Shown: positions 12,587 to 57,277 of the stretch, piece after piece | Layout: every line of letters starts with the position of its first letter | Numbering within the stretch: position 1 is the stretch's first letter | Assembly (NCBI GenBank): GCA_041652555.1 | Contig: JBAZHE010000001.1 | Span: 66,847-130,846 of the forward strand | Length of the DNA: 64,000 nt | DNA from: Patescibacteria group bacterium | Lineage (GTDB): Bacteria > Patescibacteriota > Patescibacteriia > Patescibacteriales > WJLG01 | Direction: 5' to 3' | Notes under the pieces: model-generated | Seen by the model: the letters and a program-made list of their open reading frames with translations, nothing else | Databases searched by the model: none | What the model was told of the DNA's origin: nothing | Made by a program: the position numbers and the translations under genes

Positions 12587-12748
12587 GATAAAAAATTTAC
12601 ATCGTAGAACAAGGAATATCTGGTTCAATAATTTTTCAATATAGATTACAATAAGGAATAAAAAATTATTTCACCCATATTTTTGCTCCGCTAACGCTGC
12701 GCAAAAACATCAGATATTCCTAATAGTTGTCTGAAATATTTTTTTGTC
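12587..12748 (+). repeat. attC-like site J2 (162 bp)
   Basis: R''-like cgtagAAC (AAC 12608..12610), inner arm aaggaatatctg, loop of about 88 nt, cagatattcct, then GTTgtctg (GTT 12726..12728). Confidence 0.7.
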
Positions 12749-12832
12749 TTTAGCGGTAATTTAAAATTTTGGTGCATTGAACAAAGACGAAAATTTGATT
12801 TTTAATTTATTTAAAGAGGGGTAAAAAGGAAT

Positions 12833-13417
12833 ATGTTTCAATATATAGTTTTAATCGGAGCGGTCGTGCAGTTGGTTGGTGTATTTGTTTATATTCGAGC
12901 AACTGTTCGTGGCGAAACAAAACCGAATAGAGTCACTTGGTTAATGTGGTCTGTGGCGCCATTGATTGGATCTGTTGCAGCTTTTTCTGACGGCGTTCGT
13001 TGGGCGGTGCTTCCAGTTTTTATGTCTGGTTTTGCGCCACTGCTTGTTTTTATTGCTTCTTTTGTAAATCCCAAATCATATTGGAAGCTTGAAAAATTTG
13101 ATTATGTTTGTGGAGCTTTTTCAATTTTGGCATTAGTACTTTGGGGGATTACAAAAGAACCATTGATTGCGATTATTTTTTCAATCGCCAGTGATGGATT
13201 TGCGGCAGTGCCAACTATTATTAAATCTTGGAAACATCCAGATTCTGAATCCGTCGAAGCTTACACTACTGGGTTGTTCAACTCATTAACAAGCTTTTTT
13301 GCACTGAGAACATTTGGTATTTCAGAATTGGCCTTTCCAATATATTTAGTTTTGGTAAATTCGTCATTGATTGCCGCTGTTTATAAAGGGCGATTGAAAA
13401 AAATAATCGCAAAATAA
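12833..13417 (+). CDS. Multi-pass membrane protein, unknown function (cassette ORF)
   Basis: 194 aa with about 6 hydrophobic helices and an AAAGGA SD. Confidence 0.7.
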   Translation: MFQYIVLIGAVVQLVGVFVYIRATVRGETKPNRVTWLMWSVAPLIGSVAAFSDGVRWAVLPVFMSGFAPLLVFIASFVNPKSYWKLEKFDYVCGAFSILALVLWGITKEPLIAIIFSIASDGFAAVPTIIKSWKHPDSESVEAYTTGLFNSLTSFFALRTFGISELAFPIYLVLVNSSLIAAVYKGRLKKIIAK

Positions 13418-13420
13418 GGA

Positions 13421-13471
13421 GTTTTGAATTTTTGGCATTCACCCCTGACCCCTCTGCCAAAAATCCAAAAC
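13421..13471. repeat. Cassette 3' hairpin, second copy
   Basis: gttttgaatttttggca / tgccaaaaatccaaaac around the loop ttcacccctgacccctc. The stem sequence covaries relative to the other copies. Confidence 0.75.
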
Positions 13472-13523
13472 AAAAATCAAATTTTCTTTTAGAATAACCA
13501 AAGTTTGTGCCAATAAAATAGAA

Positions 13524-13743: not shown

Positions 13744-13865
13744 ATAATAAGGAGTTTTGATAGGCAAAAAATAAGAATAAATTTGTTTTTTATTTAATTT
13801 AACAGGGGAACAAGGTGTTTTCTCCGCTCCGCCACAAAAACGATTTATTAATTTACATTTGAAAT

Positions 13866-14507
13866 ATGGCGTCAGAAAATTTTGAATTGAACCAAAAACC
13901 GGAAGTAAGCATTAATTTAATAGAGAGAATCGAAAAATTAGAAAAGATTAAAACTCCAGAAGAATTATTGTCGTTCATGAAAAAGAATATAAATTATGGT
14001 TTTATTGGTAAAGACGACGATAAAGTATATTCTCCTCGGCAAGAAGGCTGGGGTGTAGGAAAACAACCGGAAGCAAGATTACAAAGTCCTGAAGAACTTC
14101 TGAAAAGTGGTTATGGGGCTTGTTGGGAACAGACGGATTTTGAAAAACAATGGTTTGCGAAAAATAATTTTGAGTTTAAAACCCTCCTTTTGATGTTTGG
14201 AAAAGATATCAGTCAAAAAAATCCAGCCCATACGTTGTTAGCATATAAAAAAGACGATAAATGGCACTGGTTTGAAAACACACTCGATAAATATAGCGGA
14301 ATTTATGAATTTGATGATTTAGAGGATTTAATTGAGTATGCCAAAACAGTACTTATAAATAATGCTTTTAATAATGGGGCTACAGAAAACGATATTAAAG
14401 AATATAAATTGTACGACTATGATATGCCAGCATATGGCTGTAGCACTGATGAATTCATTGGGAAAATAAAATTAAATTCTAGAAATCAGGAAAGAAAAGG
14501 AAAATAA
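13866..14507 (+). CDS. Hypothetical protein with a possible transglutaminase/papain-like Cys-His core
   Basis: GYGACWEQTDF ... HTLLAYKKDDKWHWFENT. The C/H/polar spacing resembles a transglutaminase-like fold, but the assignment is weak. Confidence 0.6.
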   Translation: MASENFELNQKPEVSINLIERIEKLEKIKTPEELLSFMKKNINYGFIGKDDDKVYSPRQEGWGVGKQPEARLQSPEELLKSGYGACWEQTDFEKQWFAKNNFEFKTLLLMFGKDISQKNPAHTLLAYKKDDKWHWFENTLDKYSGIYEFDDLEDLIEYAKTVLINNAFNNGATENDIKEYKLYDYDMPAYGCSTDEFIGKIKLNSRNQERKGK

Positions 14508-14600: not shown

Positions 14601-15434
14601 ATGACAAAGAAACAAAAAATAAAAGTTGAAGGTATTGAAATAGTCACTTTTACCAAAGATAATAGCGATTATATTTCTTTAACCGATATTGCAAAACATA
14701 AAAATTCAGAGGCCGGCTTGGTTATTTCCCATTGGCTAAGCACTCGTTTTGCCATTGAATTCATGGGGATATGGGAAAAAATGAATAATCCCAATTTTAA
14801 AGTTACTGAATTCAGTAACTTTAAAAATCAAAGCGGCGCCAATGGTTTTGTATTGTCTGTCCAGCAATGGGTCAATAAAACTAGCGCTATTGGAATTTTT
14901 GCCACAAGAGGGCGCTATAATAGCGGTACTTTCGCTCACAAGGACATTGCCTTTGAATTTGCTTCTTGGATTTCAGCGGAATTTAAGTTTTATCTCATCA
15001 AAGAATTTCAGCGATTAAAGGAAGATGAAAATAACAGGCAAAAGTTAGAATGGAATCTCCAGCGAACACTGGCAAAAATCAACTACAAAATTCATACCGA
15101 TGCCATAAAGGAGAAATTAATCCCCCTTGAATTAACCAAGGAACAGATTAATATGGAATATGCCAGTGAAGCGGATTTGCTCAATGTTGCATTATTCGGA
15201 ATAACCGCAAAAACGTGGCGAGATCAAAATAAAGAATTAGATGGAAACATTCGAGATTATGCCTCAATTGAACAGTTAGTGGTTCTGTCTAATCTTGAAA
15301 GTATAAACGCATTGTTAATTCGCGAAGGATTTTCCACTGAAGATCGGATTCAAAAATTAAATAGCACCGCGATAATTCAGATGAAATCGCTTTTAATAAA
15401 CACTGAAATAAAAAAATTGGAATCGCCAAAATAA
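14601..15434 (+). CDS. KilA-N domain-containing protein
   Basis: The N-terminal 130 aa match the KilA-N pattern (YISLTDIAK...W...FAHKDIAFEFASWIS), followed by a coiled C-terminal half. Confidence 0.8.
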   Translation: MTKKQKIKVEGIEIVTFTKDNSDYISLTDIAKHKNSEAGLVISHWLSTRFAIEFMGIWEKMNNPNFKVTEFSNFKNQSGANGFVLSVQQWVNKTSAIGIFATRGRYNSGTFAHKDIAFEFASWISAEFKFYLIKEFQRLKEDENNRQKLEWNLQRTLAKINYKIHTDAIKEKLIPLELTKEQINMEYASEADLLNVALFGITAKTWRDQNKELDGNIRDYASIEQLVVLSNLESINALLIREGFSTEDRIQKLNSTAIIQMKSLLINTEIKKLESPK

Positions 15435-15446
15435 AAACAATAAGGA

Positions 15447-15497
15447 GTTTTGAAAAAACGTAATTCACCCCTAACCCCTCTTCCGTTTTTTCAAAAC
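15447..15497. repeat. Cassette 3' hairpin, third copy
   Basis: gttttgaaaaaacgtaa / ttccgttttttcaaaac around the loop ttcacccctaacccctc. Confidence 0.75.
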
Positions 15498-15550
15498 AAA
15501 AAAATCAAATTTTCTTATACGTAAAGCAACGCCAGCTCAATAAAAACCAA

Positions 15551-15711
15551 GATAAAAAATTTACATCGTACAACAAGGAATATCTGGTTCAATAATTTTT
15601 CAATATTATTTATAATAAGGAACAAAAAATTATTTCACCCATATTTTTGCTCCGCTATCGCTGCGCAAAAACATCAGATATTCCTGACTGTTAGGCGTAA
15701 TTTTCACTTTT
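15551..15711 (+). repeat. attC-like site J5 (161 bp) ending in the canonical core GTTAGGC
   Basis: 15551..15685 differs from 12587..12721 at about 7 of 135 positions. Identity stops just before GTTAGGC (15690..15696). Confidence 0.75.
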
Positions 15712-15736
15712 AAGAAGTCGCCTTTAATAAATACAT

Positions 15737-16405
15737 ATGATTTACTTAAAACAATTAATCATCATTATTCCCGCCTTTGCTGTTCTATTGTATCTAACAA
15801 CTGGATACAAGATACTTAGGCCATTTCGTAAAAACCAAATGAAAGAATTGGCGGAAAAGCTAAATCTTGAATTTGTTGGAAATGAAAAACGCAGTTGGAA
15901 AGAACGATTTTTTAGCTATTCTGTTAAAAAAAATATTATTCGTGGAGAATACAACAATAAAAAAATTGAAATTTTTGACTTTGATTCAATATTGAAAAAT
16001 GCTGTAAATCCGATTACCAACGCTGTAATGACCTATTATTATGGGAAAAATCCAGTCCATATCACCTATATAAATGGGAAAATATATAAAGATAAATATT
16101 TACCATACCTTAACATTAATAAAATTGAAAAATTGATAAAAGATGAAATTTCGTTAACCGAATATGATAAAATATTTTTTAACAAAGGTGTATTTCTGCT
16201 GACTTTATTAACATCACTTTGTATAACTTCAGTAATTGGATATTATTTTTATGCGTTTTATTCGGTTAGTCTAACAAAAATTTTAATTTTTTTAGTGCCA
16301 ATTAGCTTAATAGTTGCATATTTCTGCTACAGAATAGCTAAAAAATCTGGATACAAGGTTTTAATAAAAAATGATCCAAGAGAAGTGGCGACTTCTAAAA
16401 AGTGA
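15737..16405 (+). CDS. Membrane hypothetical protein (cassette ORF)
   Basis: 222 aa with an N-terminal TM and two C-terminal TM helices. No motif recognised. Confidence 0.6.
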   Translation: MIYLKQLIIIIPAFAVLLYLTTGYKILRPFRKNQMKELAEKLNLEFVGNEKRSWKERFFSYSVKKNIIRGEYNNKKIEIFDFDSILKNAVNPITNAVMTYYYGKNPVHITYINGKIYKDKYLPYLNINKIEKLIKDEISLTEYDKIFFNKGVFLLTLLTSLCITSVIGYYFYAFYSVSLTKILIFLVPISLIVAYFCYRIAKKSGYKVLIKNDPREVATSKK

Positions 16406-22095: not shown

Positions 22096-22169
22096 GCGCC
22101 CGTAGCTCAACTGGATAGAGCGTCTGGCTTCGGACCAGAAGGTTGCGGGTTCAAGTCCTGCCGAGCGCA
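22096..22169 (+). tRNA. tRNA-Arg (anticodon TCG)
   Basis: Manual cloverleaf: acceptor gcgcccg/cgagcgc, anticodon loop cttcgga, T-loop ttcaagt. Confidence 0.85.
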
Positions 22170-22179
22170 CAGTTCAGAG

Positions 22180-22255
22180 TTCGAATTTCGAAGTGCGAGT
22201 TTCGAATTAAATTTATAAATTAGATAATTCGCACTTCGCACTTCGAAATTCGAAA
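22180..22255. repeat. Long hairpin in tRNA spacer 1 (TTCGAA-rich)
   Basis: ttcgaatttcgaagtgcga...tcgcacttcgaaattcgaa, with at least 19 contiguous complementary nt. Confidence 0.75.
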
Positions 22256-22264
22256 GTTGAAAGG

Positions 22265-22338
22265 GGCTGGGTAGCTCAGCTGGTTAGAGCACGGCACTCA
22301 TAACGCCGAGGTCGAGGGTTCAAGTCCCTCCCCCGCCA
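22265..22338 (+). tRNA. tRNA-Met (anticodon CAT; elongator-like, but Ile2 cannot be excluded)
   Basis: Manual cloverleaf: anticodon loop ctcataa, T-arm gaggg ttcaagt ccctc. One acceptor-stem mismatch. Confidence 0.8.
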
Positions 22339-22347
22339 CAATGAAAA

Positions 22348-22439
22348 GTTCGAATTACGAAATGCGAAGTTCGAATTGATTTTTTAAGAAATATTTAGTA
22401 GTATTATAATTCGCACTTCGAACTTTGTAATTCGAAATT
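22348..22439. repeat. Long hairpin in tRNA spacer 2, related to spacer 1
   Basis: agttcgaattacgaaatgcgaagttcgaatt ... aattcgcacttcgaactttgtaattcgaaatt. Confidence 0.7.
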
Positions 22440-22446
22440 TTAAATG

Positions 22447-22519
22447 GCGCTCATAGCTCAGTTGGTAGAGCAACTCCCTCTTAAGGAGATGGTCGTGGGT
22501 TCAAATCCCTCTGAGCGCA
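22447..22519 (+). tRNA. tRNA-Lys (anticodon CTT)
   Basis: Manual cloverleaf: acceptor gcgctca/tgagcgc, anticodon loop ctcttaa, T-loop ttcaaat. Confidence 0.8.
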
Positions 22520-31454: not shown

Positions 31455-32285
31455 ATGGAAACAATAGCCAAACCAAACAAAATAGAATTTTTAAAAGGCG
31501 CTTCTGCTAAAGAGGCGACTGTAGTGGTGGAGCCGTTTTATCCTGGTTATGGTATGACCGTCGGTAATTCTTTGCGTCGCGTCATGCTTTCTTCTTTGGT
31601 TGGCACAGCCGTTGTCGGAGTGAAGATTGAAGGTGTGAGTCATGAATTCAATTCTTTGTCACACGTTAAGGAAGATATTCTGGAGATTGTGATGAATATC
31701 AAAAAATTAAAAGTAAGGATTGACGGTGAAGATGAGGAAATAAAACTAGAGCTGGAAGTCCATGGCAAGAAAGAAGTGTCCGCTGCTGATATTAAAAAAG
31801 ATTCCCGCGTGGAAATTGTTAATAAGGATATGGCGATTGCCACTATCACTGATATGGCCGGATCATTAAAAATGGAAATAACTATCGGCCGTGGCCGTGG
31901 TTATCGTCCAGTGGAGGCGACCGAGAAAAAGAATAAAGAAATCGGCTATATTGAAACGGACGCAATTTTTTCTCCAGTTTTATCCGCCGGTCTAAGAGTG
32001 GAAAATGTCCGCGTTGGCAAAATGACTAATTGGGACAAATTAATGATTGATATAATTACTGATGGAACTATTACACCAGAAGAAGCTTATCGCGATTCGG
32101 TAAAAATTTTACAAGATCAGGTTGCTTCTTTGAGTGACGAAGTTGTTGTTGCGGAAGAAATTGTTTCTGAAATTGAAGAAAGGGATGCTGTGTCTGAACC
32201 TGAAGATGTTGAAGAATCCGCCTCCGCTAAAGTTGTGGAGGACAAAGGGAAAAAAATTAAGAAGGAGAAAAAACTAAATAGTTAA
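31455..32285 (+). CDS. rpoA: DNA-directed RNA polymerase alpha subunit: NTD only, with an acidic tail in place of the alpha-CTD
   Basis: The NTD motif GNSLRRVMLSS is present. The last 50 aa or so are D/E/K-rich, with no HhH alpha-CTD-like sequence. Confidence 0.88.
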   Translation: METIAKPNKIEFLKGASAKEATVVVEPFYPGYGMTVGNSLRRVMLSSLVGTAVVGVKIEGVSHEFNSLSHVKEDILEIVMNIKKLKVRIDGEDEEIKLELEVHGKKEVSAADIKKDSRVEIVNKDMAIATITDMAGSLKMEITIGRGRGYRPVEATEKKNKEIGYIETDAIFSPVLSAGLRVENVRVGKMTNWDKLMIDIITDGTITPEEAYRDSVKILQDQVASLSDEVVVAEEIVSEIEERDAVSEPEDVEESASAKVVEDKGKKIKKEKKLNS

Positions 32286-33002: not shown

Positions 33003-33494
33003 ATGGCTATTAAAGAAGAAAAAAAAGAAGTTAAACCGAAAAAAGAAGTTTCTAAAGAAGCTGTTGTTAAGAAGGAGAAAAAAGAAAAAGAAACTATTGG
33101 TTTTTCTGGAAAATATATCCAGGCTCTTGGTCGTCGCAAAACTGCGGTCGCCCAAGTTCGTTTATATGTTGAAGGCCCAGCTGTTTTCACTGCTAATGGA
33201 AAAGATTTGGAAAAATATTTCAATGAAGCAAAAGCATCAACTGCTTTGCAACCGATAAAAGCCGCTGGTTTGGAAAAGACTGCTGGTGCTTCCATTATTG
33301 TTAAGGGCGGTGGCATCAATGCCCAAGCCGAGGCGGTTCGCCACGGTTTCGCCCGCGCCTTATTATTAATGGATCCTGAATTACAAGGCGCTATGCGTGC
33401 TAAAGGTTGGCTTACTCGCGACTCTCGTAAGGTTGAAAGAAAGAAACCTGGTTTGAAAAAAGCTCGTCGCGCACCACAGTGGTCCAAACGTTAA
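33003..33494 (+). CDS. rpsI: 30S ribosomal protein S9 with a K/E-rich N-terminal extension
   Basis: The S9 core (GRRKTAVA.V.L..G...GGG...QA.A..HG.ARAL...R.VERKK.G..KARR..Q.SKR) follows about 30 low-complexity residues. Confidence 0.92.
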   Translation: MAIKEEKKEVKPKKEVSKEAVVKKEKKEKETIGFSGKYIQALGRRKTAVAQVRLYVEGPAVFTANGKDLEKYFNEAKASTALQPIKAAGLEKTAGASIIVKGGGINAQAEAVRHGFARALLLMDPELQGAMRAKGWLTRDSRKVERKKPGLKKARRAPQWSKR

Positions 33495-33500
33495 ATTTTG

Positions 33501-33529
33501 TGTCATTCCTGCGGAGGCGGGAATCCAGC
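33501..33529. repeat. Solo half of the dRS3/NIME-like element, copy (b)
   Basis: gtgtcattcctgcggaggcgggaatccag, just after the rpsI stop. Confidence 0.7.
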
Positions 33530-36229: not shown

Positions 36230-37795
36230 ATGAAAAGGAGGTGGATAATATTTTTTTCTTGCTGGTCGTTTGCCTTGGGTATTGCTATCGCCTCATTTTT
36301 ACCGCAAAGATTTTTGCTGTTTGATATATATTTTTTTGCCATCGCTATAATTTTTGGTTTAGTCGCGTTTTTAATTCCCTCTAAAAAGAGGGGTGGCGCA
36401 GTACTCTGCGACGGGGTGTGTCGTGTTAAGAATCAAAGCAATTTCAAGCGAGTCGTTTTGTTATTGCTGGCTTTTTTGTTTTTGGGAATTTGGCGTTTAG
36501 CTATTTCTTTTCCTGATAATTCGCCAGATAAAATTTGGTATTATAACGGAGAGAATTTAGAAATTACCGGCATTGTTGCGAGTGAGCCGGTTAATAAAGA
36601 AAAAACTCAGCGTCTGGAAATAAATGTTTTAAATATTAATCCCCCTCTAGAAAGAGGGGTGCCCGTACTCGGGCGGGGTGTGTCGAGCGTTACCAACAAA
36701 GCTGTTTCAGGAAGTATTCTCGTCTCCGTGCCAATTTATCCTGAATATTTTTACAGCGATGTTATAAAATTTCAATGCGAAATAAAGTCGCCCGGCGTGA
36801 TTGAAGATTTTGATTATGGTCGTTATCTCGCAGCAAAAAATATTTACTCAGTTTGCTATAGTCCTAAATTAATTTTATCTTATAAAGAAGGGGTGGAAAA
36901 AGGCGTGGGGCTAAACATAAAAAAATCTTTACCTTTGGAGTTTATTTGGCGTCCGATATTTTCTTTGCGCAAATTTTTTCGTTCCACTATTGAATTGGGT
37001 TTAAAAGAACCCGAGGCCGGATTAGTAAAAGCTTTTATTTTAGGCGACTCCACTGCCATTCCGGACGAGCTTAATAATTCTTTCCGTCAAAGCGGTCTTT
37101 CGCATATTGTGGCGATTTCCGGAACGCATATCACTCTAATGGTTGGAATGTTTTTCTTTTTATTGTTGGGAATAAATTTAAAACGACGCCAAGCTTTTTA
37201 TTTATCAATTCCCTTAATAATTTTTTATATCACCCTGGCTGGTTCGCCAGCTTCGGCAGTGCGTTCGGGGGTGATGGGATTTTTGGTTCTTTTGGCTTTG
37301 CATGTTGGACGCCTGAATCGTTTAGATTATTCTCTAGTTTTGTCTGGCGCAGTTATGCTTTTGGTTAATCCGAAATATTTAATTGCTGATGCCGGATTCC
37401 AGCTATCATTTTTGGCAGTTTTGAGCATGGCTTATTTGTACCCATTTTTTGATAATCGTCTTAAACCTTTTTATGAAAAAGCCCCTAAGAAAATTAGGGG
37501 AGTGGTAAAAGTTATTTGTCAAGCCTTTGCCTTAACAATCGCCGCGCAAATATTTACTTTGCCGATTTTAATTTTTAGTTTTCGCCAAATTTCTTTTATC
37601 GCACCATTTTCAAATATTTTAGTTCTTTGGATTTCTCCATTTTTAATGGGTGGAGCGTTTATCGGCATCGGTTTGTCTTTACTAATTCCTGTCGTCGCTC
37701 CATTTTTCTTTCTACCGACCGGACTAGTGGCTAAATATTTAATAGCTGTAGCCGAAATTTGTGCCACACTACCTTTCGCGTATTGGAAGTTTTAG
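36230..37795 (+). CDS. comEC: ComEC/Rec2-family competence membrane protein
   Basis: Multi-TM protein with the motif QSGLSHIVAISGTHITLM. ATG at 36230 (the ORF-track TTG is at 36206). Carries two in-frame REP-like inserts. Confidence 0.85.
   Translation: MKRRWIIFFSCWSFALGIAIASFLPQRFLLFDIYFFAIAIIFGLVAFLIPSKKRGGAVLCDGVCRVKNQSNFKRVVLLLLAFLFLGIWRLAISFPDNSPDKIWYYNGENLEITGIVASEPVNKEKTQRLEINVLNINPPLERGVPVLGRGVSSVTNKAVSGSILVSVPIYPEYFYSDVIKFQCEIKSPGVIEDFDYGRYLAAKNIYSVCYSPKLILSYKEGVEKGVGLNIKKSLPLEFIWRPIFSLRKFFRSTIELGLKEPEAGLVKAFILGDSTAIPDELNNSFRQSGLSHIVAISGTHITLMVGMFFFLLLGINLKRRQAFYLSIPLIIFYITLAGSPASAVRSGVMGFLVLLALHVGRLNRLDYSLVLSGAVMLLVNPKYLIADAGFQLSFLAVLSMAYLYPFFDNRLKPFYEKAPKKIRGVVKVICQAFALTIAAQIFTLPILIFSFRQISFIAPFSNILVLWISPFLMGGAFIGIGLSLLIPVVAPFFFLPTGLVAKYLIAVAEICATLPFAYWKF
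36373..36423 (+). repeat. REP-like element R1, in-frame inside comEC
   Basis: ccctct-aaaa-agaggg, then cgcag-tact-ctgcg, then acggggtgtgtcg. Translated as PSKKRGGAVLCDGVCR. Confidence 0.75.
36638..36685 (+). repeat. REP-like element R2, in-frame inside comEC
   Basis: cccctct-agaa-agagggg, then gcccg-tact-cgggc, then ggggtgtgtcg. Translated as PPLERGVPVLGRGVS. Confidence 0.8.
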
Positions 37796-37844: not shown

Positions 37845-39335
37845 ATGATTTATGTTAATAAATTTAGAATAATTTGGATAATTGCTTTAACAGCCATGGT
37901 TTTTGTTTTGGCCTGGTTAAAAATCGTTCCGACCGGTAAAATTACCTATTTTAATAATAGCGACTTTATTAGTAATTTAACGCCAGTTGAGAGAATGAAT
38001 GTTGATAAAATTATTGGTGACCCTGTTTATTTTACTTTGCGTGTGCCTCGTCGTTTTGAGAGCGCTAAGTTGACTATAAAATTTAAAAATGAAAGTGCTT
38101 TGCCAATTATAGAAGCTGGGGTTTTGATTGATAAAAAAGTTTGGAACTATGATTTAAAGCCTTTGGACAATTCTATTTTGGATAATTTGATAGGTAAATG
38201 GAATTCTGTTCGCTCTGGAGATTTGCTTTTATTGCAGAGAGAGAAAAAGTTTAAAAGTGTAGAAGAATTTTTGAAAAATCCGCCAGTGAGTGATAAAATC
38301 GCTGCTTATAATTATTCTCTAGAACAAAATTTTTTATTACCAGATTATAAAACTTCAAAAGAAGAAATGACTTTGTGTCGTCCGCTTCAGGGTGCTTATC
38401 AATTTTATACATATATTAAGGATGAAGATTTGTCGTTTGATTTTGCTTTACAGGATTTGAATAAAAATGATGACGAAGATATAGTTGACGCTTTGGTTTA
38501 TTATAAGGATCAAGAAATATACAAAGAAACCTTACCAGATAATAATAGTAATAGTAGAAATTTAAAATTATTTTTAACCAATTTGCCAGAGGGAGTTTAT
38601 AAAATAAGTTTGCGCGCCAATAATGATATTGTGACGCGCACAATAACTACGTCACAATCAAAAATTACTTTTATAAATAAAGTCGCCTTGGCTGATACGC
38701 CCGAAGTTTCGTGCGGTCGAAATTTGTTTACCAATAGCCGAGTGGCGCAATTTCAAACAATTTTATCCAATAAGCTCGGACAAATTAAAATTACCCAGGC
38801 AATTAAATCCCCTCTAGAAAGAGGGGTGCATCAGTACTCTGAGGCGGGGTGTGTCGGCGTCTGCACACAGCAAGAAGTTAATTTGAACGAAACCTATAAA
38901 CTTTTTTCTACTGGATGCCAGAACAGGGCAGTGCCCTGTTCCTACGAGACCTTACCGTCATTTTCTGAAATTATTATGCCATCTGACGGGATAACTGTAA
39001 CTGGCGACGGTTTATTTTCTTTTTCCCTTGAACAATTTTTTAATCCGGAAATAAAAAAAGTTGACGAGAATTTTGATCCTGACCGAGAAGATGTAGATTT
39101 TATTATTGCTAAATATACACCACCAACACTCGATGGTGAATGGAAGATTGCCACCGCTGATTTTGATTTAACAAACGCTTATAAAGAATTTAATAAACAT
39201 AGTTTTTTGATTTCTATTCCAGGACTCCGCGCTGAAGATGGAACTTTGGATGGAGTAGAAGTTGGAGAGGTTAAAATTGAGCTATCTGGAGTAAGTTTGT
39301 TTGATAAAATATTTAAAATGATAAATGATAAATGA
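37845..39335 (+). CDS. Membrane-anchored hypothetical protein (496 aa)
   Basis: N-terminal TM segment and a long extracytoplasmic region. Carries the in-frame REP-like insert R3. Confidence 0.65.
   Translation: MIYVNKFRIIWIIALTAMVFVLAWLKIVPTGKITYFNNSDFISNLTPVERMNVDKIIGDPVYFTLRVPRRFESAKLTIKFKNESALPIIEAGVLIDKKVWNYDLKPLDNSILDNLIGKWNSVRSGDLLLLQREKKFKSVEEFLKNPPVSDKIAAYNYSLEQNFLLPDYKTSKEEMTLCRPLQGAYQFYTYIKDEDLSFDFALQDLNKNDDEDIVDALVYYKDQEIYKETLPDNNSNSRNLKLFLTNLPEGVYKISLRANNDIVTRTITTSQSKITFINKVALADTPEVSCGRNLFTNSRVAQFQTILSNKLGQIKITQAIKSPLERGVHQYSEAGCVGVCTQQEVNLNETYKLFSTGCQNRAVPCSYETLPSFSEIIMPSDGITVTGDGLFSFSLEQFFNPEIKKVDENFDPDREDVDFIIAKYTPPTLDGEWKIATADFDLTNAYKEFNKHSFLISIPGLRAEDGTLDGVEVGEVKIELSGVSLFDKIFKMINDK
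38806..38856 (+). repeat. REP-like element R3, in-frame inside the 37845 gene
   Basis: aatcccctctagaaagaggggtgcatcagtactctgaggcggggtgtgtcg. Translated as SPLERGVHQYSEAGCV. Confidence 0.8.
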
Positions 39336-39340: not shown

Positions 39341-39525
39341 TAGGGAGTATATTTAAAGAATTATTTTATGCTTTAACTGTTTTCTTGGTGGTTTTAGCGG
39401 TTTTAGAGTTGCTTTTTTCTCGGATGGTGTTGGCTTATATTAATTTAAGCTATTTGTTGCTCGTCTGGCTGATAATTGGTATAATTTTATTAGTAATATC
39501 AAAGAAAAAGTTGTCATCCCCGTGA
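39325..39525 (+). CDS. Small two-TM membrane protein (hypothetical)
   Basis: 66-aa ORF with two hydrophobic helices. Its last codons run into repeat element (c). Confidence 0.4.
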   Translation: MINDKLGSIFKELFYALTVFLVVLAVLELLFSRMVLAYINLSYLLLVWLIIGIILLVISKKKLSSP

Positions 39526-39594
39526 AAACGGGGATCCAGAATTTTTTACAGCAACGCTCGAACACTGGATTCCCGCCTACGCGGGAATGACACA
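39512..39594. repeat. dRS3/NIME-like element, copy (c)
   Basis: tgtcatCCCCGtgaaaaCGGGGatccag - 27 nt - ctggatTCCCGCctacGCGGGAatgaca. Confidence 0.85.
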
Positions 39595-40203: not shown

Positions 40204-42171
40204 ATGTCAAAAAAAACGCTAAAAATACCCACTTTCGCTAAAGCTATGGCGGGCAAGACTAAAAAGAAGAGTGTTAATCAGGAGTTAACTGATGTTTTGT
40301 TAGCTTCTAAGAAGGTTTATAAGCCGTCTAAGAAGGTTGTGGCGGAGGCGGCGGTTAAAGACTGGGAAAAGGCTAGACGTGAGGCTGATAAAGATCCTTT
40401 GAAATATTGGGAAGAGGCAGCTCGCGATTTAGTTTGGTTTAAGCCATGGACTCAGGTTTTAGATAAATCACAAAAGCCGTTTTATAAATGGTTTATTGGT
40501 GGCAAAACAAATCTCGCCTATAATGCTGTTGACCGCTGGCTTAATACGCCGAAAGAAAATCAAGTAGCGATTATGTCTGAGGATGAAACCGGTCGCGCTC
40601 GTAAATTTACTTACAAAGAAATTTCTCGTGAAATTAATAAAACCGTTAATGCTTTAAAAAATATTGGTGTGAAAAAGGGCGACAGAGTGGCAATTTATAT
40701 GCCAAACATTCCAGAAATTGCTTTTGCGATGTTGGCTTGCGCAAAAATTGGTGCGATGCATTCTGTGGTTTATGCCGGTTATAGCGCCACCGCTTTAAAA
40801 GATAGAATTCAAGATGCTAGCGCTAAAGTTGTTTTTACTGCTGATGGTTCTTTGCGTCGCGGTAAGGTTATTAATTTGAAATCAGTTGTAGACGAAGCAG
40901 TTAAAGATTGTTCATCCGTAGAAAAAATAATTGTTGTTAAGAATAATAATCAAGAAGTAGCTTTTAATAGTAAAAAAGATATCTGGTATCACGATTTTAT
41001 CAAGGATCAATCAGATGAGGCTGTCTGCGAGGCGATGGATAGTGAGGATCCGGCTTTTGTTCTCTATACTTCTGGTACAACTTCTAAGCCAAAAGGCGTA
41101 GTGCACGTTCACGGTGGTTATCCAGTTGGAGTTTTGCGCACAATGAAATGGGTTTGGGACGTGAAAGAGACTGATATTTTTTGGTGTACGGCTGACCCTG
41201 GTTGGATTACCGGACATTCATATATTATATACGGACCATTGCTTGCTGGCGTAACTACTCTGATGTATGAAGGCACGCCGGATTTTCCAGAACAAGATCA
41301 TATTTGGAAATTAGTTGAAAAATATAAAATTACTATTCTTTATACCGCACCGACCTTGATTCGTGCGATGATGAGCATGGGCGACGAATTACCTGACAAA
41401 CATCTAATGGAAAGTTTGCGTCTTTTGGGCTCGGTTGGTGAGCCAATAAATCCTGAAGCTTGGCGCTGGTATTTTAAGCATATCGGCAAAGGACAGTGCC
41501 CAATTATGGATACTTGGTGGCAAACAGAAACAGGTTGCAATATGTTAACTCCTTTACCAAGCGCACCTTTAAAAGCTGGTTCAGCTACAAAACCATTCCC
41601 AGGAATTGAAGCCGATATCTACGGTATGAATGGCAAAAAAGTTCCTGTTGGCAAAGGCGGTTATTTAGTTATTAAAAATCCTTGGCCATCAATGATTCGC
41701 ACAGTTTTTAATGCCCCGGAAAGATATTTAAAAACTTACTGGAAACAAATTAAAGGAGTTTATTTCACCGGTGATATTGGTTTTAAGGATAAAGATGGTT
41801 ATTTCTTTATTCAAGGTCGTACTGATGATATGTTAAAAATTGCCGGACATAGAATTGGTACTGCCGAAGTTGAGTCAGCCTTCGTGGCCCATCCTTCAGT
41901 GGCTGAATGTGGTGTTATCGGCGTGCCTGATGCTATCAAAGGCGAAACCATTAAAGCTTTTTGTATTTTGAAAAAGGGGATTATCGGCAGTGATGAATTA
42001 AAAGCTGAATTAAAAATGCACGTCCGCAAAACTATCGGGCCGGTTGCAGTTATGAGCGGAATAGAATTTGTAGAAACCCTACCAAAAACCCGTTCCGGAA
42101 AAATAATGCGTCGCGTCTTAAAAGCTAAAGAATTGGGCTTGCCATTAGGAGATACCTCAGCCCTGATTTAA
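40204..42171 (+). CDS. acs: Acetyl-CoA synthetase (AMP-forming)
   Basis: YTSGTTSKPKG AMP-binding motif, WWQTETG, and C-terminal PKTRSGKIMRR with the regulatory Lys. ATG at 40204. Confidence 0.93.
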   Translation: MSKKTLKIPTFAKAMAGKTKKKSVNQELTDVLLASKKVYKPSKKVVAEAAVKDWEKARREADKDPLKYWEEAARDLVWFKPWTQVLDKSQKPFYKWFIGGKTNLAYNAVDRWLNTPKENQVAIMSEDETGRARKFTYKEISREINKTVNALKNIGVKKGDRVAIYMPNIPEIAFAMLACAKIGAMHSVVYAGYSATALKDRIQDASAKVVFTADGSLRRGKVINLKSVVDEAVKDCSSVEKIIVVKNNNQEVAFNSKKDIWYHDFIKDQSDEAVCEAMDSEDPAFVLYTSGTTSKPKGVVHVHGGYPVGVLRTMKWVWDVKETDIFWCTADPGWITGHSYIIYGPLLAGVTTLMYEGTPDFPEQDHIWKLVEKYKITILYTAPTLIRAMMSMGDELPDKHLMESLRLLGSVGEPINPEAWRWYFKHIGKGQCPIMDTWWQTETGCNMLTPLPSAPLKAGSATKPFPGIEADIYGMNGKKVPVGKGGYLVIKNPWPSMIRTVFNAPERYLKTYWKQIKGVYFTGDIGFKDKDGYFFIQGRTDDMLKIAGHRIGTAEVESAFVAHPSVAECGVIGVPDAIKGETIKAFCILKKGIIGSDELKAELKMHVRKTIGPVAVMSGIEFVETLPKTRSGKIMRRVLKAKELGLPLGDTSALI

Positions 42172-42180
42172 TAATGTATT

Positions 42181-42244
42181 AATCCCCTCTATGTGGGGGT
42201 GCCATAGTCCCTGTACTCAGGGCTGTGGCACCCAGGTGCAAGTG
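42181..42244 (+). repeat. REP-like hairpin R4, left flank of the RAYT pseudogene
   Basis: aatcccctctatgtgggggtgccatagtccctgtactcagggctgtggcaccc... Confidence 0.8.
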
Positions 42245-42258
42245 TTTAAAAAAAAGTT

Positions 42259-42804
42259 ATGCCACCACTAAGGATAAATATTGAAAACGAGAATTCTTTG
42301 CATTTTTTGACGCTGACTATTATTGAGTGGATAGATATTTTTACTAAGCCACAATATTTTGATATTATTATTGACAGTTTGAAATATTGTCGAGAAAATA
42401 AAGGCTTAAAATTATTTGAATTCGTTATTCTAGCTAATCATTTGCATTTAATTGTTAAAGCTAAAGAGGGCTATAAATTATCGCAAATAGTTAGCGATTT
42501 TAAAAAATACACTACGAGAGAAATTCTGAAAGCTTTGCAGGTGGACAATAGGAGATATATTTTAAATTTAATTAAAAATAGTTTTTCCAGAAAAAAAGAT
42601 TACGAAAATCAAATTTAGCAAAGAGAAAATTATCCAGAAATGATTAGTTCGGAAAAATTTTTGCAAGAAAAGATAAAATATATTCATAATAATCCAGTAA
42701 AGAAAAATTATGTTTGCTTGCCGGAGTATTGGTATTATTCTTCGGCTAGAAATGATATATTAAACGATAATAGTTTAATTGAGCTTGATAATCTTTGGGC
42801 GTAG
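42259..42804 (+). pseudogene. REP-associated tyrosine transposase (RAYT / IS200-like Y1 HUH transposase) with an in-frame TAG
   Basis: HUH motif NHLHLIV, FKKYTTREI, YIHNNPVKK...YWYYSSA. TAG at 42616..42618 sits where homologs have the W of xWQR. Confidence 0.8.
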
Positions 42805-42815
42805 TACTGAGATTT

Positions 42816-42866
42816 GCAAATAGGGTGCCACAGCCTTGAGTACCGGGACTATGGCACCCCCAAGTA
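42816..42866 (-). repeat. REP-like hairpin R5, right flank of the RAYT pseudogene, inverted relative to R4
   Basis: The reverse complement reads tgggggtgccatagtcccggtactcaaggctgtggcaccc. Confidence 0.8.
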
Positions 42867-42920
42867 AAGATAATTTTAATATTAGCGTTACGAATTATGC
42901 GTTGCGCGTTATAAGAATAT

Positions 42921-45614
42921 ATGGAAATGTCACATCATTTAAGCGAAAAAAGGTTGGATAAGATTTTTAATCCGCAGACTATTGCGGTTATTGGTGCTTC
43001 TGATAAACAGGGCGGAGTTGGCAATGCTTTGATGAAAAATTTGATTGGTAATAATTATCAAGGGATTGTTTATCCGGTTAATCCTAATCGTGAAAGCGTG
43101 CAGGGGATTAAAGCTTATGTGAAGGTTTCGGATATTCCGGACAAGATTGATTTGGCAATTATTTGTACTCCGGCGGTGACTGTGCCGGCGATTGTTGAGG
43201 AGTGTGGTCAGGCTGGGGTTTCCGGTTTGGTTATTATTTCTTCTGGTTTTGATGAAATTGGCGAGAAGGGCAAAAAAATGAGTGAAGAAATTTTGTCTAT
43301 CGCTAACACTTATAATATGCGCGTAGTTGGGCCGAATTGCCTTGGCTTTATTCGTCCGTCAATCAATCTTAATGCTAGCTTTGCCAACAAAATGGCTTTG
43401 CCCGGGCATATTGCTTTTATTTCTCAATCAGGGGCGCTTTGTACTTCTATTCTTGACTGGTCAGTAAAAAATAATGTTGGTTTTTCTCATTTTGTTTCAA
43501 TTGGTTCTAATATTGATATTTCTTTTCATGATTTGATTGATTATTTCGGTGATGATCCAGAGACTGATAGTATTTTGATTTATATGGAGTCTTTGAAAGA
43601 GGCGCGAAAGTTTATGAGTGCGGCGCGGGCGTTTTCTCGTAAAAAACCAATTGTAGTTTTGAAAGTTGGACGCACTGAGGCTGGTTCTCGTGCAGCTAAG
43701 TCGCATACTGGAGCGATTACTGGTAATGATTCGGTTTATGATGCGGCCTTTGAACGTGCTGGCATTATTCGTGTTGATGGTGCTTTGGAACTTTTTCATG
43801 TAGCAAAAAGTTTGGCTATGCAAAAACGCCCACTTGATAATCGTGTGGCGGTAATTACTAATGCTGGTGGTCCTGGTGTTATTGCGGCTGATCGTTTGGC
43901 CTTAAAAGGTGGGCGTTTAGCAGAGCTGTCACATAAGACAGTTGAAGCTTTAAAAAATATTTTGCCGGCATCCGCTTCCACTGTTAATCCAGTTGATATT
44001 TTGGGTGATGCTGATTCTTTGCGTTATCGTCAGGCCGTGGAATTATGCTTAGAAGACTCTGGAGTTGATGCAGCTTTGATAATTTTGACACCGCAAGAAA
44101 TGACTAGCCCGACTGATGTAGCGCGGCAAATTGTTTCGGTCCAAAACAAAAAAGGTAAAATGATTTTTGCTTCTTGGATGGGTGGCGACGATGTAGCTGA
44201 AGGGCGGGTGATTTTGGAGCAAGGAAATATTCCAATATATAGAACGCCAGAAGAGGCGGTTGATATTTTTATGTATGTTGATAGTTACCGCAAACGTTTG
44301 GAATTTTTGAAAGAAACTCCAGGGTCTATTCCACATGCTTTTAAACCAAAAACTGAGGCAAATAAAAAATTAATTGAAAAAGTTGTTGCTTCTGGGCGAA
44401 CGGTTTTGACTGAAATTGAAGCTAAAGAAATGATTGCTAATTACGGAATTCCAGTAGCAAAAAATGGTGTCGCCAATTCGGCTACCGAGGCTGGAGAGAT
44501 TGCTGAAAAAACAGGCTTCCCAGTAGTGATGAAAATTCTTTCGCCTGATATTTTACACAAGACTGACATTGGCGGTGTAAAATTAAATATTAATTCTAAA
44601 GCCGAAGCAGAAAAGGCTTACAAAGAAATAATAGCGGGCGCGAAAAAGGGCGCACCTAAGGCAAAAATCGATGGCGTATTTATTGAGGTAATGACCAAGA
44701 AGCGCTACGAGCTTTTGATTGGTTGTAAGAAGGATGAGGTTTTTGGCCCGGCGATTGTTTTTGGTATGGGTGGTGTGGCCGTGGAAGTTTTTCGTGATAC
44801 AGCGGTTGGTTTGCCACCGTTGAATATGTCTCTGGCTTTAAAAATGATTCAAGAAACAAAAATTTATAAATTATTAAAAGGTTATCGCGGAATGCCTGGA
44901 GTTGATATTCCCGCAATTCAATTTTTGCTTTATAAATTTGCTTATTTGGTAAGTGATTTTCCGGAGATAAAAGAATTAGATATTAATCCTTTTGCGGTTG
45001 ATGAAAAGGGTGGTGTGGTTTTGGATGCTAAAGTTATTTTGGATGAAAAAGTTTTAGGCGTAAAACATAAACCTTATTCACATCTGGTAATTTCTCCTTA
45101 TCCTCGCGAGTATGAGAAGAAGATTGTTCTAGAAAATAAGAAAAATATTTTAATTCGTCCGATTCGTCCAGAAGATGAAGATTTAGAAATGGAGATGATA
45201 AATAATTTTTCTGCTACCACGATGCGTGATAGGTTTTTAGGTAAAGTTAAAAAAGTTAATTTGGAAATGTTGCGTGGTTTTACGCAAATAGATTATGATC
45301 GTGAAATTGCTTTGGTTGCAGAAACAGAGGAACGCAAAAAGAAAAAATTTGTTGGTGTTGTGCGTTTGGCTATTGACCCATACAATGAATCCGCCCTGTT
45401 AACAATCGCTCTAGTTGACTCCTGGCAAGAAATGACTTTAGGCAGTGAAATGATTGATTATATGTTAGACATTGCCCGCGCTCGAGGCGTGAAAAAAGTT
45501 TGGATGGAATTTTTTCCAACTAATAAAAGAATCATAAAAATCCTAACCAAACGCAATTTTACAATGAAAGAAAAGGGGAGTATTATGGTTGGAGAGTTGG
45601 AATTAGAAGACTAA
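42921..45614 (+). CDS. Pat-type protein lysine acetyltransferase (ADP-forming acyl-CoA synthetase-like domains fused to C-terminal GNAT)
   Basis: 897 aa: CoA-binding N-terminus (IAVIGASDK), ATP-grasp middle, GNAT-like C-terminus (IRPIRPEDE...VGVVRL...). Confidence 0.85.
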   Translation: MEMSHHLSEKRLDKIFNPQTIAVIGASDKQGGVGNALMKNLIGNNYQGIVYPVNPNRESVQGIKAYVKVSDIPDKIDLAIICTPAVTVPAIVEECGQAGVSGLVIISSGFDEIGEKGKKMSEEILSIANTYNMRVVGPNCLGFIRPSINLNASFANKMALPGHIAFISQSGALCTSILDWSVKNNVGFSHFVSIGSNIDISFHDLIDYFGDDPETDSILIYMESLKEARKFMSAARAFSRKKPIVVLKVGRTEAGSRAAKSHTGAITGNDSVYDAAFERAGIIRVDGALELFHVAKSLAMQKRPLDNRVAVITNAGGPGVIAADRLALKGGRLAELSHKTVEALKNILPASASTVNPVDILGDADSLRYRQAVELCLEDSGVDAALIILTPQEMTSPTDVARQIVSVQNKKGKMIFASWMGGDDVAEGRVILEQGNIPIYRTPEEAVDIFMYVDSYRKRLEFLKETPGSIPHAFKPKTEANKKLIEKVVASGRTVLTEIEAKEMIANYGIPVAKNGVANSATEAGEIAEKTGFPVVMKILSPDILHKTDIGGVKLNINSKAEAEKAYKEIIAGAKKGAPKAKIDGVFIEVMTKKRYELLIGCKKDEVFGPAIVFGMGGVAVEVFRDTAVGLPPLNMSLALKMIQETKIYKLLKGYRGMPGVDIPAIQFLLYKFAYLVSDFPEIKELDINPFAVDEKGGVVLDAKVILDEKVLGVKHKPYSHLVISPYPREYEKKIVLENKKNILIRPIRPEDEDLEMEMINNFSATTMRDRFLGKVKKVNLEMLRGFTQIDYDREIALVAETEERKKKKFVGVVRLAIDPYNESALLTIALVDSWQEMTLGSEMIDYMLDIARARGVKKVWMEFFPTNKRIIKILTKRNFTMKEKGSIMVGELELED

Positions 45615-45616
45615 TT

Positions 45617-45691
45617 TGTCATTCCCGTAAAAACGGGAATCTAGGATTCTGCGTGATAAAGCTGGATTCCCGCCTTCGTGGGAATGACACA
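45617..45691. repeat. dRS3/NIME-like element, copy (d)
   Basis: tgtcatTCCCGtaaaaaCGGGAatctag - 19 nt - ctggatTCCCGCcttcGTGGGAatgaca. Ends 6 nt before the murJ ATG. Confidence 0.85.
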
Positions 45692-51580: not shown

Positions 51581-53308
51581 ATGAATAAGATTTGGCATAT
51601 TAAACCGAAAGCTCGTGAAGAATTTTTTGAAAAATTTCCGGAGTACGGCCGGATTTTTTCGCAACTTTTATATAATCGCGACTTAAAAGAAAAAGAAGAA
51701 GTTGAATATTTTTTGCATGCCAAGTATGAAGATAATTTTGATCCGTTCATTTTTCGTGATATGGAGGCGGCCGTTGCTTTGGCTATCAAGAAGATAAAAG
51801 AGCGTAAGAAAATTTGTATTTATGGCGACTATGATGCCGACGGGGTGACTGCGTCGGTTTTGTTGTCTGAAATTTTGACAACTATAAAAGCGGATTGTTT
51901 TGTGTATATTCCGGAGCGGGCCGGCGAAGGTTATGGCGTGAATCAAGAAGCGATAGATAAAATTTTAAATAAAGGGGCGAATTTAATGATTACGGTAGAC
52001 GGTGGAATTAGAAATAAAAAAGAAATTGAATATGCCAAAAGTAAAGGGTTAGAAATTATAATTACCGATCATCATGAGCCGCCGGATGATGAAAAAGATT
52101 TACCGCCTTGCCTTATTATTAATCCGCATAATCACGGTGAAAAATATCCTTTTAAATTTTTATCCGGGGTGTCGGTGGCGTTTAAATTCGCTCGGGCGCT
52201 CTTGGAAAGATCAACTTTAACCGCCGAGCAGAAAAAAAAGATTTTAGAAAAGGTGATGGACTTGGTGGCGATCGGCACAGTGGCGGATTGTGTTTGTTTA
52301 ACCGGAGAAAATCGTTTGTTTTTGAAAAAAGGTTTGGAGGTTTTGAATGCCGGAAAAAGAATCGGCTTAAAAGAATTAGTAAAAAAAGCCAAACTTGATG
52401 GAAAGAATTTAGAAGCTTGGAATATTGGTTTTCAAATTGCTCCTCGTTTAAATGCTTCTAGTCGTATGGGGTCAGCTAATAATGCCTTCAATCTTTTGTC
52501 CACCAAGGAAAAGGATGTAGCCGAGAAAGAGGCGGAATTTCTGGATGAACGCAATCAGAAACGACAAAAAGAAACCGAATTGATGGTTGCCGAGGTGGAG
52601 GAGCAACTAAAAAAACAATTAGCAGAAAAAATAATTATTGGCGTCTGCCCAAAAGAAAGCAAAAATTGGAATGAAGGCGTTGTTGGCTTAGTAGCCGGTA
52701 GATTGACGGAAAAATATCATAAACCTACGTTGGTTTTAACAAGAAATGAAAATGATTATAAAGGTTCCGGCCGATCAATTGACGAATTTAATTTATTTAA
52801 TGCGGTTGAAGAATGTTCTGATTTACTTTTGAAGCACGGCGGACACAAAATGGCCTGCGGGTTTTCTTTAGCAACTTCGCGCCTCGAAGAATTTTCCAAT
52901 AAGATGCGTAAAATCGCCCGCCGTGAATTAGAGAAAGCCAGCATGGAAGCAAAGATTGAGATTGATATGGAGATAAATTTGGCCGAGGCGACTCGTCTTT
53001 TGGCGCGCGAAGTTCTTGGGCTGGCGCCGTTTGGTTATTACAATTCTCAGCCGAAATTTTTGAGCCGTAATGTTTTAATCAAAGATATTATTTTTATGGG
53101 TGCGGAAAGTCAACATTTGAAATTTCGCCTTGGTTCGGCCGACAATATTGGTGCTGGAGATTTTTGGGGCTTGAGTTTTAATCGCGCAACTGAATGGGCA
53201 GATCTAAAAATCGGCGACATTGTGGATATTGTTTATCAACTGGAAGAAAATGAATTCAATGGAAAAATAAATTTACAATTAAAAATTCAAGATATTAAAT
53301 TAAGTTGA
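51581..53308 (+). CDS. recJ: Single-stranded-DNA-specific exonuclease RecJ
   Basis: DHH motifs (GDYDADGV, DHH), DHHA1 (GGH..A.G). ATG at 51581 (the ORF-track TTG is at 51560). Confidence 0.92.
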   Translation: MNKIWHIKPKAREEFFEKFPEYGRIFSQLLYNRDLKEKEEVEYFLHAKYEDNFDPFIFRDMEAAVALAIKKIKERKKICIYGDYDADGVTASVLLSEILTTIKADCFVYIPERAGEGYGVNQEAIDKILNKGANLMITVDGGIRNKKEIEYAKSKGLEIIITDHHEPPDDEKDLPPCLIINPHNHGEKYPFKFLSGVSVAFKFARALLERSTLTAEQKKKILEKVMDLVAIGTVADCVCLTGENRLFLKKGLEVLNAGKRIGLKELVKKAKLDGKNLEAWNIGFQIAPRLNASSRMGSANNAFNLLSTKEKDVAEKEAEFLDERNQKRQKETELMVAEVEEQLKKQLAEKIIIGVCPKESKNWNEGVVGLVAGRLTEKYHKPTLVLTRNENDYKGSGRSIDEFNLFNAVEECSDLLLKHGGHKMACGFSLATSRLEEFSNKMRKIARRELEKASMEAKIEIDMEINLAEATRLLAREVLGLAPFGYYNSQPKFLSRNVLIKDIIFMGAESQHLKFRLGSADNIGAGDFWGLSFNRATEWADLKIGDIVDIVYQLEENEFNGKINLQLKIQDIKLS

Positions 53309-53389
53309 TGTCATCCCCGCGAAGGCGGGAATCTAGTAAGTTTACAAAGTGCTCGCACTCTGGATTCCCGCTTTCGCGGGAATGACACA
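53309..53389. repeat. dRS3/NIME-like element, copy (e)
   Basis: tgtcatCCCCGCgaagGCGGGAatctag - 27 nt - ctggatTCCCGCtttcGCGGGAatgaca. Ends 8 nt before the rnhA ATG. Confidence 0.85.
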
Positions 53390-57187: not shown

Positions 57188-57198
57188 ATAAGAATAGG

Positions 57199-57277
57199 TG
57201 TCATCCCCGCGAAGGCAGGGATCCAGAAATTTGTTTAGTACTTGCACTCTGGATTCCCGCCTTCGCGGGGATGACAA
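57199..57277. repeat. dRS3/NIME-like element, copy (f), inside the por operon
   Basis: tgtcatCCCCGCgaagGCAGGGatccag - 24 nt - ctggatTCCCGCcttcGCGGGGatgaca. Confidence 0.85.

Follow-up and report, generated by a model that had tools for sequence, protein, structure and literature searches.

An inverted-REP-flanked RAYT transposase gene between acs and a Pat-type gene in a Patescibacteria genome has probably been inactivated by a recent nonsense mutation

We analysed a 64-kb stretch of a Patescibacteria group bacterium genome (contig JBAZHE010000001.1, positions 66,847 to 130,846; hereafter the window, within which all positions below are numbered) and describe here a gene for a REP-associated tyrosine transposase (RAYT) together with the two inverted repetitive extragenic palindrome (REP) hairpins that bracket it. 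The upstream neighbour, acs, encodes an AMP-forming acetate--CoA ligase (40204..42171, + strand), and its stop codon lies 25 nt from the stem of the left REP hairpin (42195..42233, +), which we recognised from its sequence, its DNA fold and homologous hairpins beside intact RAYTs elsewhere. A TGCA tetranucleotide follows on the gene-facing side, 3 nt inside the hairpin foot (42237..42240). The RAYT frame begins with an open reading frame (ORF) at 42259..42618 (+), comprising codons 1-119 and a premature TAG, which carries the HUH motif (H61-L-H63) without the catalytic tyrosine. It continues as an untranslated remainder at 42619..42804 (+; codons 121-181 and a stop), in which Y141, N145 and the YSSAR region are intact; the frame is open from 42618 to a TAG at 42802-42804, the TAG at 42616-42618 being its sole internal stop. 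The first-pass annotation had already joined the 119-aa ORF to a same-frame extension reaching 42804 across one TAG, and sequence and coordinates agree with it. A second TGCA (42815..42818) faces the gene 4 nt inside the foot of the right REP hairpin (42823..42861, -), which repeats the left one in inverted orientation with 37 of 39 positions identical, and a gene for an 897-aa Pat/PatZ-type protein follows (42921..45614, +). A search of Rfam with positions 41800-43200 returned no relevant family, and a promoter and terminator scan near the REPs gave no signal exceeding background.

Translated through the premature stop, the protein matches the NCBIfam profile of the RAYT family (NF047646 REP_Tyr_transpos; COG1943) with 101 bits (cut-off 80; residues 8-161 cover profile positions 5-146 of 146) and Pfam Y1_Tnp with 33 bits (cut-off 23), and scores 25.9 bits against the IS200/IS605 transposase profile NF033573, below its cut-off of 55. 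A database search returned 2,115 homologues at E<=1e-5; among the 120 listed most are 181 aa long, the named ones are mostly Patescibacteria, and several carry the label RayT at JGI, whereas a scan of viral contigs found no RAYT relatives. An AlphaFold model built from 26 sequences reached a mean pLDDT (predicted local distance difference test score) of 79, with low confidence over C-terminal residues 148-170, and all 30 of its Foldseek matches in the PDB at E<1e-3 were Y1 transposases. Coverage and TM-score (0.62/0.67, 169 aligned columns) were best for E. coli TnpA_REP (4er8_A), and the predicted structure has the Y1/HUH fold with the C-terminal extension of RAYTs. The assignment to RAYT-type Y1/HUH transposases made from the sequence at first pass is therefore supported by both profiles and by the fold match to 4ER8.

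Alignment with 25 homologues (59-85% identical) placed the motifs precisely. The HUH motif, N60-H61-L62-H63, had been correctly identified as NHLHLIV: H61 and H63 are invariant in all 25 homologues and align with H59 and H61 of 4ER8. The proposed tyrosine region, FKKYTTREI, did not hold up, as the column of its Y84 contains H in 15 homologues, F in 4 and Y in only 6. The catalytic equivalent is Y141, which together with N145 (KYIHNNPV) aligns in sequence with Y115 and N119 of TnpA_REP. In that enzyme Y115 is catalytic, H59 and H61 form the HUH motif, and N119, H123 and E161 are further metal ligands (PMC3479197).

The premature stop (42616..42618, +) occupies codon 120, within the IWQRENYPE motif, where every one of the 25 homologues has Trp and where W94 of the TnpA_REP IWQ motif aligns. 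The earlier proposals that the stop sits at the family Trp, and that one TGG-to-TAG change explains it, were thus confirmed: a single G-to-A transition at an otherwise invariant residue suffices. The catalytic tyrosine, in the Y-I-x-x-N-P motif of helix alpha-D, is encoded past this codon, and the 119-aa product retains the HUH histidines while losing the nucleophile Y141, the ligand N145 and the C-terminal region. Such a product would be unable to form the covalent 5'-phosphotyrosine intermediate, which would make the gene a null allele. We conclude that the gene is a RAYT by descent and that its 119-aa product, judged from sequence, is predicted to be no functional member of the family.

This conclusion depends on TAG being read as a stop. 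Across the 40 window ORFs of at least 200 codons, TAA is used 26 times, TGA 7 and TAG 7; the TAG that closes a comEC-like ORF matches the end of its orthologue in a related genome (L018), and the RAYT frame, too, ends naturally in a TAG, where its homologues have their C-termini. Reassignment of TAG was considered and is rejected on this stop-codon usage: the genome uses TAG as an ordinary stop, and the RAYT is a pseudogene in the sense that an in-frame codon read as a stop stands at a family-conserved residue. One could still suppose that the TAG is sometimes decoded, by a suppressor tRNA or in a leaky context, so that some full-length RAYT is made and the stop throttles transposase dosage. 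The preserved post-stop sequence, including Y141, N145 and the YSSAR region, would suit such an arrangement, and CAA directly follows the stop; in some eukaryotic viral systems, termination at UAG-CAA is leaky. We nevertheless regard it as extremely unlikely, given the ordinary use of TAG in seven of the 40 long ORFs and at the natural end of the RAYT, the absence of a suppressor or CUA tRNA among the three tRNAs in the window (Arg-TCG, Met-CAT and Lys-CTT), and the absence of a stop at codon 120 from all 25 homologues. We know of no bacterial precedent for it among RAYTs.

A different possibility is that the gene is intact in the organism, with the TAG either introduced artefactually during assembly or consensus building, or present as one allele beside a circulating TGG. 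The source is a metagenome-assembled genome, that is, a population consensus; the lesion is single, and the 61 downstream codons give no sign of relaxed constraint. All invariant and near-invariant columns past the stop are kept, and no second lesion was found there. When each sequence's mean identity to the other 25 was computed for the C-terminal part and divided by that for the N-terminal part, the window protein gave a ratio of 0.92 (rank 21 of 26), placing it among those with better-conserved C-termini. Against an intact gene, the exact 119-aa product occurs in NCBI (MFA5247737.1, 'transposase'), JGI ('RayT'), Logan and ENA on contigs of four length classes, and contigs from other pipelines, a 4,434-bp Logan contig (SRR18595300) and a 1,646-bp ENA contig (ERZ27247350, whose k141_ names follow the MEGAHIT style), match the window at 100% identity, TAG included, so that a shared substitution error is unlikely. 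We consider an intact gene unlikely on balance, and the same absence of decay keeps both polymorphism and read-through alive at low probability. The post-stop residues are intact, no second lesion is present and the two flanking REPs have kept 95% mutual identity, all of which suggests that the RAYT was inactivated very recently in evolutionary terms.

The flanking hairpins tie the gene to a REP class of its own. The 38-nt hairpin GGGGTGCCATAGTCCCTGTACTCAGGGCTGTGGCACCC at 42196-42233 (+) recurs with two mismatches at 42823-42860 (-); these are its only occurrences in the 64 kb, one per strand, and 100 shuffled sequences gave no match. In the left stem (42197-42233), a 10-bp lower stem, GGTGCCATAG/CTGTGGCACC, that contains a T.G mismatch is separated by a bulged T (42208) from a CCCTG/CAGGG upper stem, which carries a TACT loop. 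As single-stranded DNA the left hairpin is predicted to fold at -16.9 kcal/mol (z -3.8), compared to -10 to -11 kcal/mol for the right one, which two substitutions weaken by disrupting two pairs of the upper stem. An apparent inverted repeat of 62 nt was discarded as unconvincing, since outside the hairpins only 14 of 24 positions match and the sequence is AT-rich. The bracketing of the gene by a hairpin and its inverted copy, as annotated at first pass, was reproduced at the same coordinates and extends to homologues: the same inverted hairpin type flanks intact RAYTs in at least six genomes (loci L003, L005/L006, L008, L015, L022 and L023), where the RAYT proteins share 59-81% identity and the hairpins sometimes occur as doublets or small arrays.

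Comparing these hairpins defined the class more closely. Across 19 instances from 11 loci, the window's included, the 10-bp lower stem reads GGYKCCATAG/CTGTGGMRCC; pair 8 is always a T.G mismatch, pair 10 is always followed by a bulged T, and three further pairs covary (C-G, T-A and G-C). Because the regular expression used to gather the instances prescribed the outer seven positions and allowed only complementary bases at pairs 3 and 4, just the inner positions count as free observations. The upper stem and loop vary freely across the class (GAA, GGA, GTTA or long GC-rich extensions), so the GTACT loop of the window copies is no family signature; what is conserved is the lower stem and the TGCA tag. 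TGCA accompanies 17 of 27 hits to the regular expression, the remainder having TGCT, TGCC, TGTT or TGTA, against a chance expectation of about 1% per site, and it always lies on the gene-proximal side, 3-5 nt past the foot of the hairpin (4-6 when counted from the last matched base). These features mark the hairpins beside the gene as cognate REPs of this RAYT clade.

Within the window the class is confined to the two flanking copies. A third copy was found neither by exact and near-exact search, nor by blastn-short, nor by the class regular expression, and a permissive scan for CCATAGT...CTGTGG gave fewer matches in the window than in shuffled sequence. With no further copies in the 64 kb, the same stem variant is nonetheless dispersed in a Patescibacteria single-cell genome and in metagenome contigs. 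We scanned a one-genome-per-species collection and the JGI metagenomes, neither of which contains the window's own contig. The first gave two matches, on separate contigs of the single-cell genome; by their ORF listing both look intergenic, and a RAYT was detected on neither contig. The second gave five contigs. Three bear REP doublets without a gene (L013 2287-2400, L014 812-930 and L017 1067-1204), with tags facing inward across a spacer of 40-50 nt; by sequence this arrangement is that of a REPIN (a doublet of REPs in inverted orientation) lacking a gene. The fourth (L015) carries an uninterrupted RAYT 81% identical to ours, and the fifth (L016) a lone REP. One REP on L013 is nearly identical to the right REP of the window, sharing its GTACT loop and its flanks TTTGCAAATAG and CCCCCAA. 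Somewhere in Patescibacteria, then, this REP class is mobile or dispersed. The first-pass suggestion that the family may now be non-autonomous presupposes such a dispersed REP population in the window's own genome, of which the 64 kb give no sign.

The neighbourhood of the gene bears on how the unit reached its position. The acs product is identical to a 655-aa NCBI protein (P0121) and scores 881 bits against TIGR02188 (cut-off 725) and 912 bits against NF001208. The 897-aa protein has an N-terminal region resembling ADP-forming acyl-CoA synthetases and a C-terminal GNAT domain: it scores 583 bits against TIGR02717, matches 'acetyltransferase Pat' weakly over residues 735-879, and has orthologues with the Pfam domains CoA_binding, Succ_CoA_lig, ATP-grasp_5 and Acetyltransf. 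That such a protein regulates Acs is an expectation drawn from Pat of Salmonella and E. coli. The first-pass annotation had described the RAYT as inserted between acs and its putative regulator; the position is right, with acs on one side and a Pat/PatZ architecture on the other, but insertion into that spacer is not borne out, as the corresponding spacer in relatives is not empty. In genomes whose acs is 83-87% identical (L018, L019 and L021), acs is followed by a Ser_hydrolase gene and pat (L018), by Ser_hydrolase, cupin and pat (L019), or by Ser_hydrolase and then unrelated genes with no pat (L021). No REP or RAYT occurs within about 5 kb on either side of acs in these three, and their acs-pat spacers allow neither a clean empty site nor a target duplication to be reconstructed. 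Four hairpins of another family (GGCAGAGTC..GACTCTGCC; CGCAGTC..GACTGCG) fill the acs-Ser_hydrolase spacer of L019 (6940-7160), and similar hairpins adjoin the REPIN in L014.

The closest intact RAYT (P0001, 85% identical, on a 127,314-bp contig of JGI 3300075153) is flanked by a 524-aa gene and by acs, on the upstream side of the latter; acs and pat are adjacent in that genome, 262 bp apart, and the RAYT is on the opposite side of acs compared to the window. Because the relatives' spacers vary and P0001 lies upstream of acs, the acs-pat junction emerges as a variable spot and the RAYT unit as one that occupies different sites in different genomes, a distribution that fits mobility. Two further loci, L005 and L006, encode an identical RAYT protein (P0030) and share their upstream flank, yet diverge 3 nt outside the foot of the right REP (L005 1826-1880 versus L006 1856-1910), beyond which both sequence and genes differ. 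This rearrangement breakpoint at a REP edge hints that REP edges serve as breakpoints.

Such observations could also be accommodated by an autonomous IS200/IS605-type insertion sequence that moves with its end hairpins, rather than by a domesticated single-copy RAYT. That reading would account for the 64 kb holding only two flanking hairpins, for homologues lying in unrelated neighbourhoods in every genome examined, for the closest intact homologue sitting across acs, and for the divergence of L005 and L006 just outside the right REP. It is difficult to reconcile with the protein passing the RAYT equivalog while falling well short of NF033573, with hairpins that are inverted copies of one sequence instead of same-strand left and right ends that differ from each other, with the lack of a tnpB, and with gene-less REP doublets of the same class, which are expected of REPINs mobilised in trans. 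We judge it very improbable. A broader proposal is that the RAYT clade and its TGCA-tagged hairpins with T.G mismatch and bulged T constitute an undescribed, Patescibacteria-specific, low-copy and still mobile REP/REPIN system; we put it forward as a doubtful though conceivable extension, its mobility being suggested by RAYTs on different sides of acs, the breakpoint at a REP edge and the gene-less REPINs.

The window contains other repeats as well. Three double-hairpin elements of about 55 nt lie in frame within ORFs at 36370-36423, ~36635-36690 and 38803-38856, hosted by two unrelated proteins, a comEC-like 534-aa ORF and a 496-aa ORF. Each consists of AATCCCCTCT-AGAA-AGAGGGG (CCCCTCT-AGAA-AGAGGGG), followed by a covarying stem around a TACT loop and by GGGGTGTGTCG, and the copy at 38803 encodes the residues KSPLERGVHQYSEAGCVG, which are missing from both orthologues. 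A GGGGTGC...GTACT core had been said to unite the flanking REPs with short REPs elsewhere in the window. In part this stands, since the three elements do share CCCTCT..GGGGTG and the TACT loop; their membership of this REP class does not, as they sit inside ORFs and have neither the CCATAG/CTGTGG stem of the class nor the TGCA tag. With their in-frame position inside genes they resemble the Rickettsia palindromic elements inserted in coding sequence. The outer flank of the left REP, CCCTCTATGTGGGGGTG, resembles the first hairpin of the in-frame elements, but the pattern was designed after the match had been seen and the link is unproven. Under the doubtful proposal of a Patescibacteria-specific REP/REPIN system, the in-frame elements of these two genes might derive from that system.

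An abundant REPIN-like family, unrelated to the REPs of the RAYT, forms TGTCATTCCCGC...GCGGGAATC doublets in which the hairpins TGTCATyCCCGyGAAGGCGGGAATCyAG and CTGGATTCCCGC..GCGGGAATGACA stand inverted, 10-20 nt apart. Five doublets and one singlet occur in the window (4518-4595, 33494-33528, 39505-39592, 45610-45689, 53302-53387 and 57192-57276), and no cognate transposase for this family was seen there. Palindromic blocks of 58-79 nt, rich in TTCGAA, recur in the spacers of the tRNA-Arg/Met/Lys cluster (22140-22466). Repeated blocks of 86-159 nt at 12463-12728, 13401-13486 and 15427-15692 each contain a hairpin around a CACCCCTAACCCCTC core (GTTTTGAAAAAA.. / ..TTTTTTCAAAAC) and sit just before three + strand ORFs (12815-13417, 13863-14507 and 15731-16405). 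Finally, a 36-56-nt repeat (AATCCGCC.CGCTAAAGnTncGGAGGACAAAG) is present in four copies (397-520, 32210-32270 and 40221-40256), one of them in the first codons of acs, where it encodes PTFAKAMAGK.

Taken together, these results make it probable that the locus is a REP-RAYT unit, with inverted cognate REPs bearing a gene-proximal TGCA, whose RAYT has recently been nulled by a G-to-A change at Trp120. If it worked as E. coli TnpA_REP does, the intact RAYT would recognise its imperfect hairpin on single-stranded DNA by the mismatch, the bulge and the nearby tetranucleotide; the tyrosine on helix alpha-D would cleave while the HUH histidines hold a metal ion, and the enzyme would thereby move REPs or REP doublets. 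In the window genome, the change of the Trp120 codon from TGG to TAG would abolish this activity. Several points weigh against so complete an account. The assemblies that agree on the TAG may share the same or sibling reads, in which case they would also agree on a population polymorphism or a consensus error, and the undecayed post-stop sequence is what continued expression by read-through would likewise leave. With no such REP elsewhere in the 64 kb, a role in mobilising dispersed REPs in this genome is conjectural, and the cleavage chemistry, the active strand and the part played by TGCA are argued by analogy.

RAYT-REPIN systems have been argued to be long-lived, vertically inherited partners of their genomes, and loss of the RAYT is predicted to lead to decay of the REP population. 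A RAYT just inactivated beside intact REPs, with no secondary lesions, would offer a time-zero point for the decay prediction in an ultra-small, streamlined genome. If the doubtful proposal of a Patescibacteria-specific REP/REPIN system held, the nonsense allele would mark a lineage in which that system has just been switched off. What the locus shows is a recent loss within a system of familiar type, and it introduces no new system; NCBI and JGI already attach the names 'transposase' and 'RayT' to its product. What is added is a corrected assignment of the catalytic tyrosine, evidence that the hairpins are cognate, and a usable REP-class definition for a widespread Patescibacteria RAYT clade (GGYKCCATAG/CTGTGGMRCC with T.G mismatch, bulged T and TGCA). 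Knowledge of how RAYTs work is unchanged by these results.

In the searchable literature we found no papers that connect Patescibacteria genomes with RAYTs or REPINs. The tagged palindromes surveyed by Di Nocera et al. (2013) fall into GTAG and CGTC classes, and TGCA is left unmentioned; neither of these tags characterises the present class, whose conserved tag is TGCA with variants TGCT, TGCC and TGTT. The IS200/IS605 transposases TnpA of IS608, ISDra2 and IS200 share the HUH/Y1 fold with the window protein (Foldseek E ~1e-6), and recognise imperfect subterminal hairpins, as the intact window protein presumably would. However, the window protein fails their NCBIfam cut-off and has a longer C-terminal region, its hairpins are inverted copies of one sequence, and no tnpB-sized ORF lies between acs and pat.

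The REPIN-RAYT systems of Pseudomonas and Enterobacteria (Bertels & Rainey; Groups 2 and 3) are similar in having a REP-flanked RAYT and gene-less doublets, as on L013, L014 and L017. They differ in abundance, since the REP copy number appears low and nearer to that of Groups 1 and 4: flanking 16-mers occur about 12-14 times in RAYT Groups 1 and 4, compared to 57-140 times in Groups 2 and 3 (PMC5581495). The window also shows no sign of the hundreds of dispersed REPs that characterise the E. coli REP/BIME (bacterial interspersed mosaic element) system, with none in 64 kb. E. coli TnpA_REP itself (RayT/YafM, 4ER8) shares only 18% identity with the read-through protein; its GTAG stands directly at the hairpin foot, whereas the TGCA of our class lies 3-5 nt away, and the window copy is cut before the catalytic tyrosine. 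The two are alike in the HUH motif, in the tyrosine of the Y-I-x-x-N-P helix and in the aligned IWQ motif. In both, imperfect inverted hairpins with a conserved mismatch and a tetranucleotide near the foot bracket the gene, and it is such stem irregularities and the nearby tetranucleotide that E. coli TnpA_REP needs for binding and cleavage (PMC3479197).

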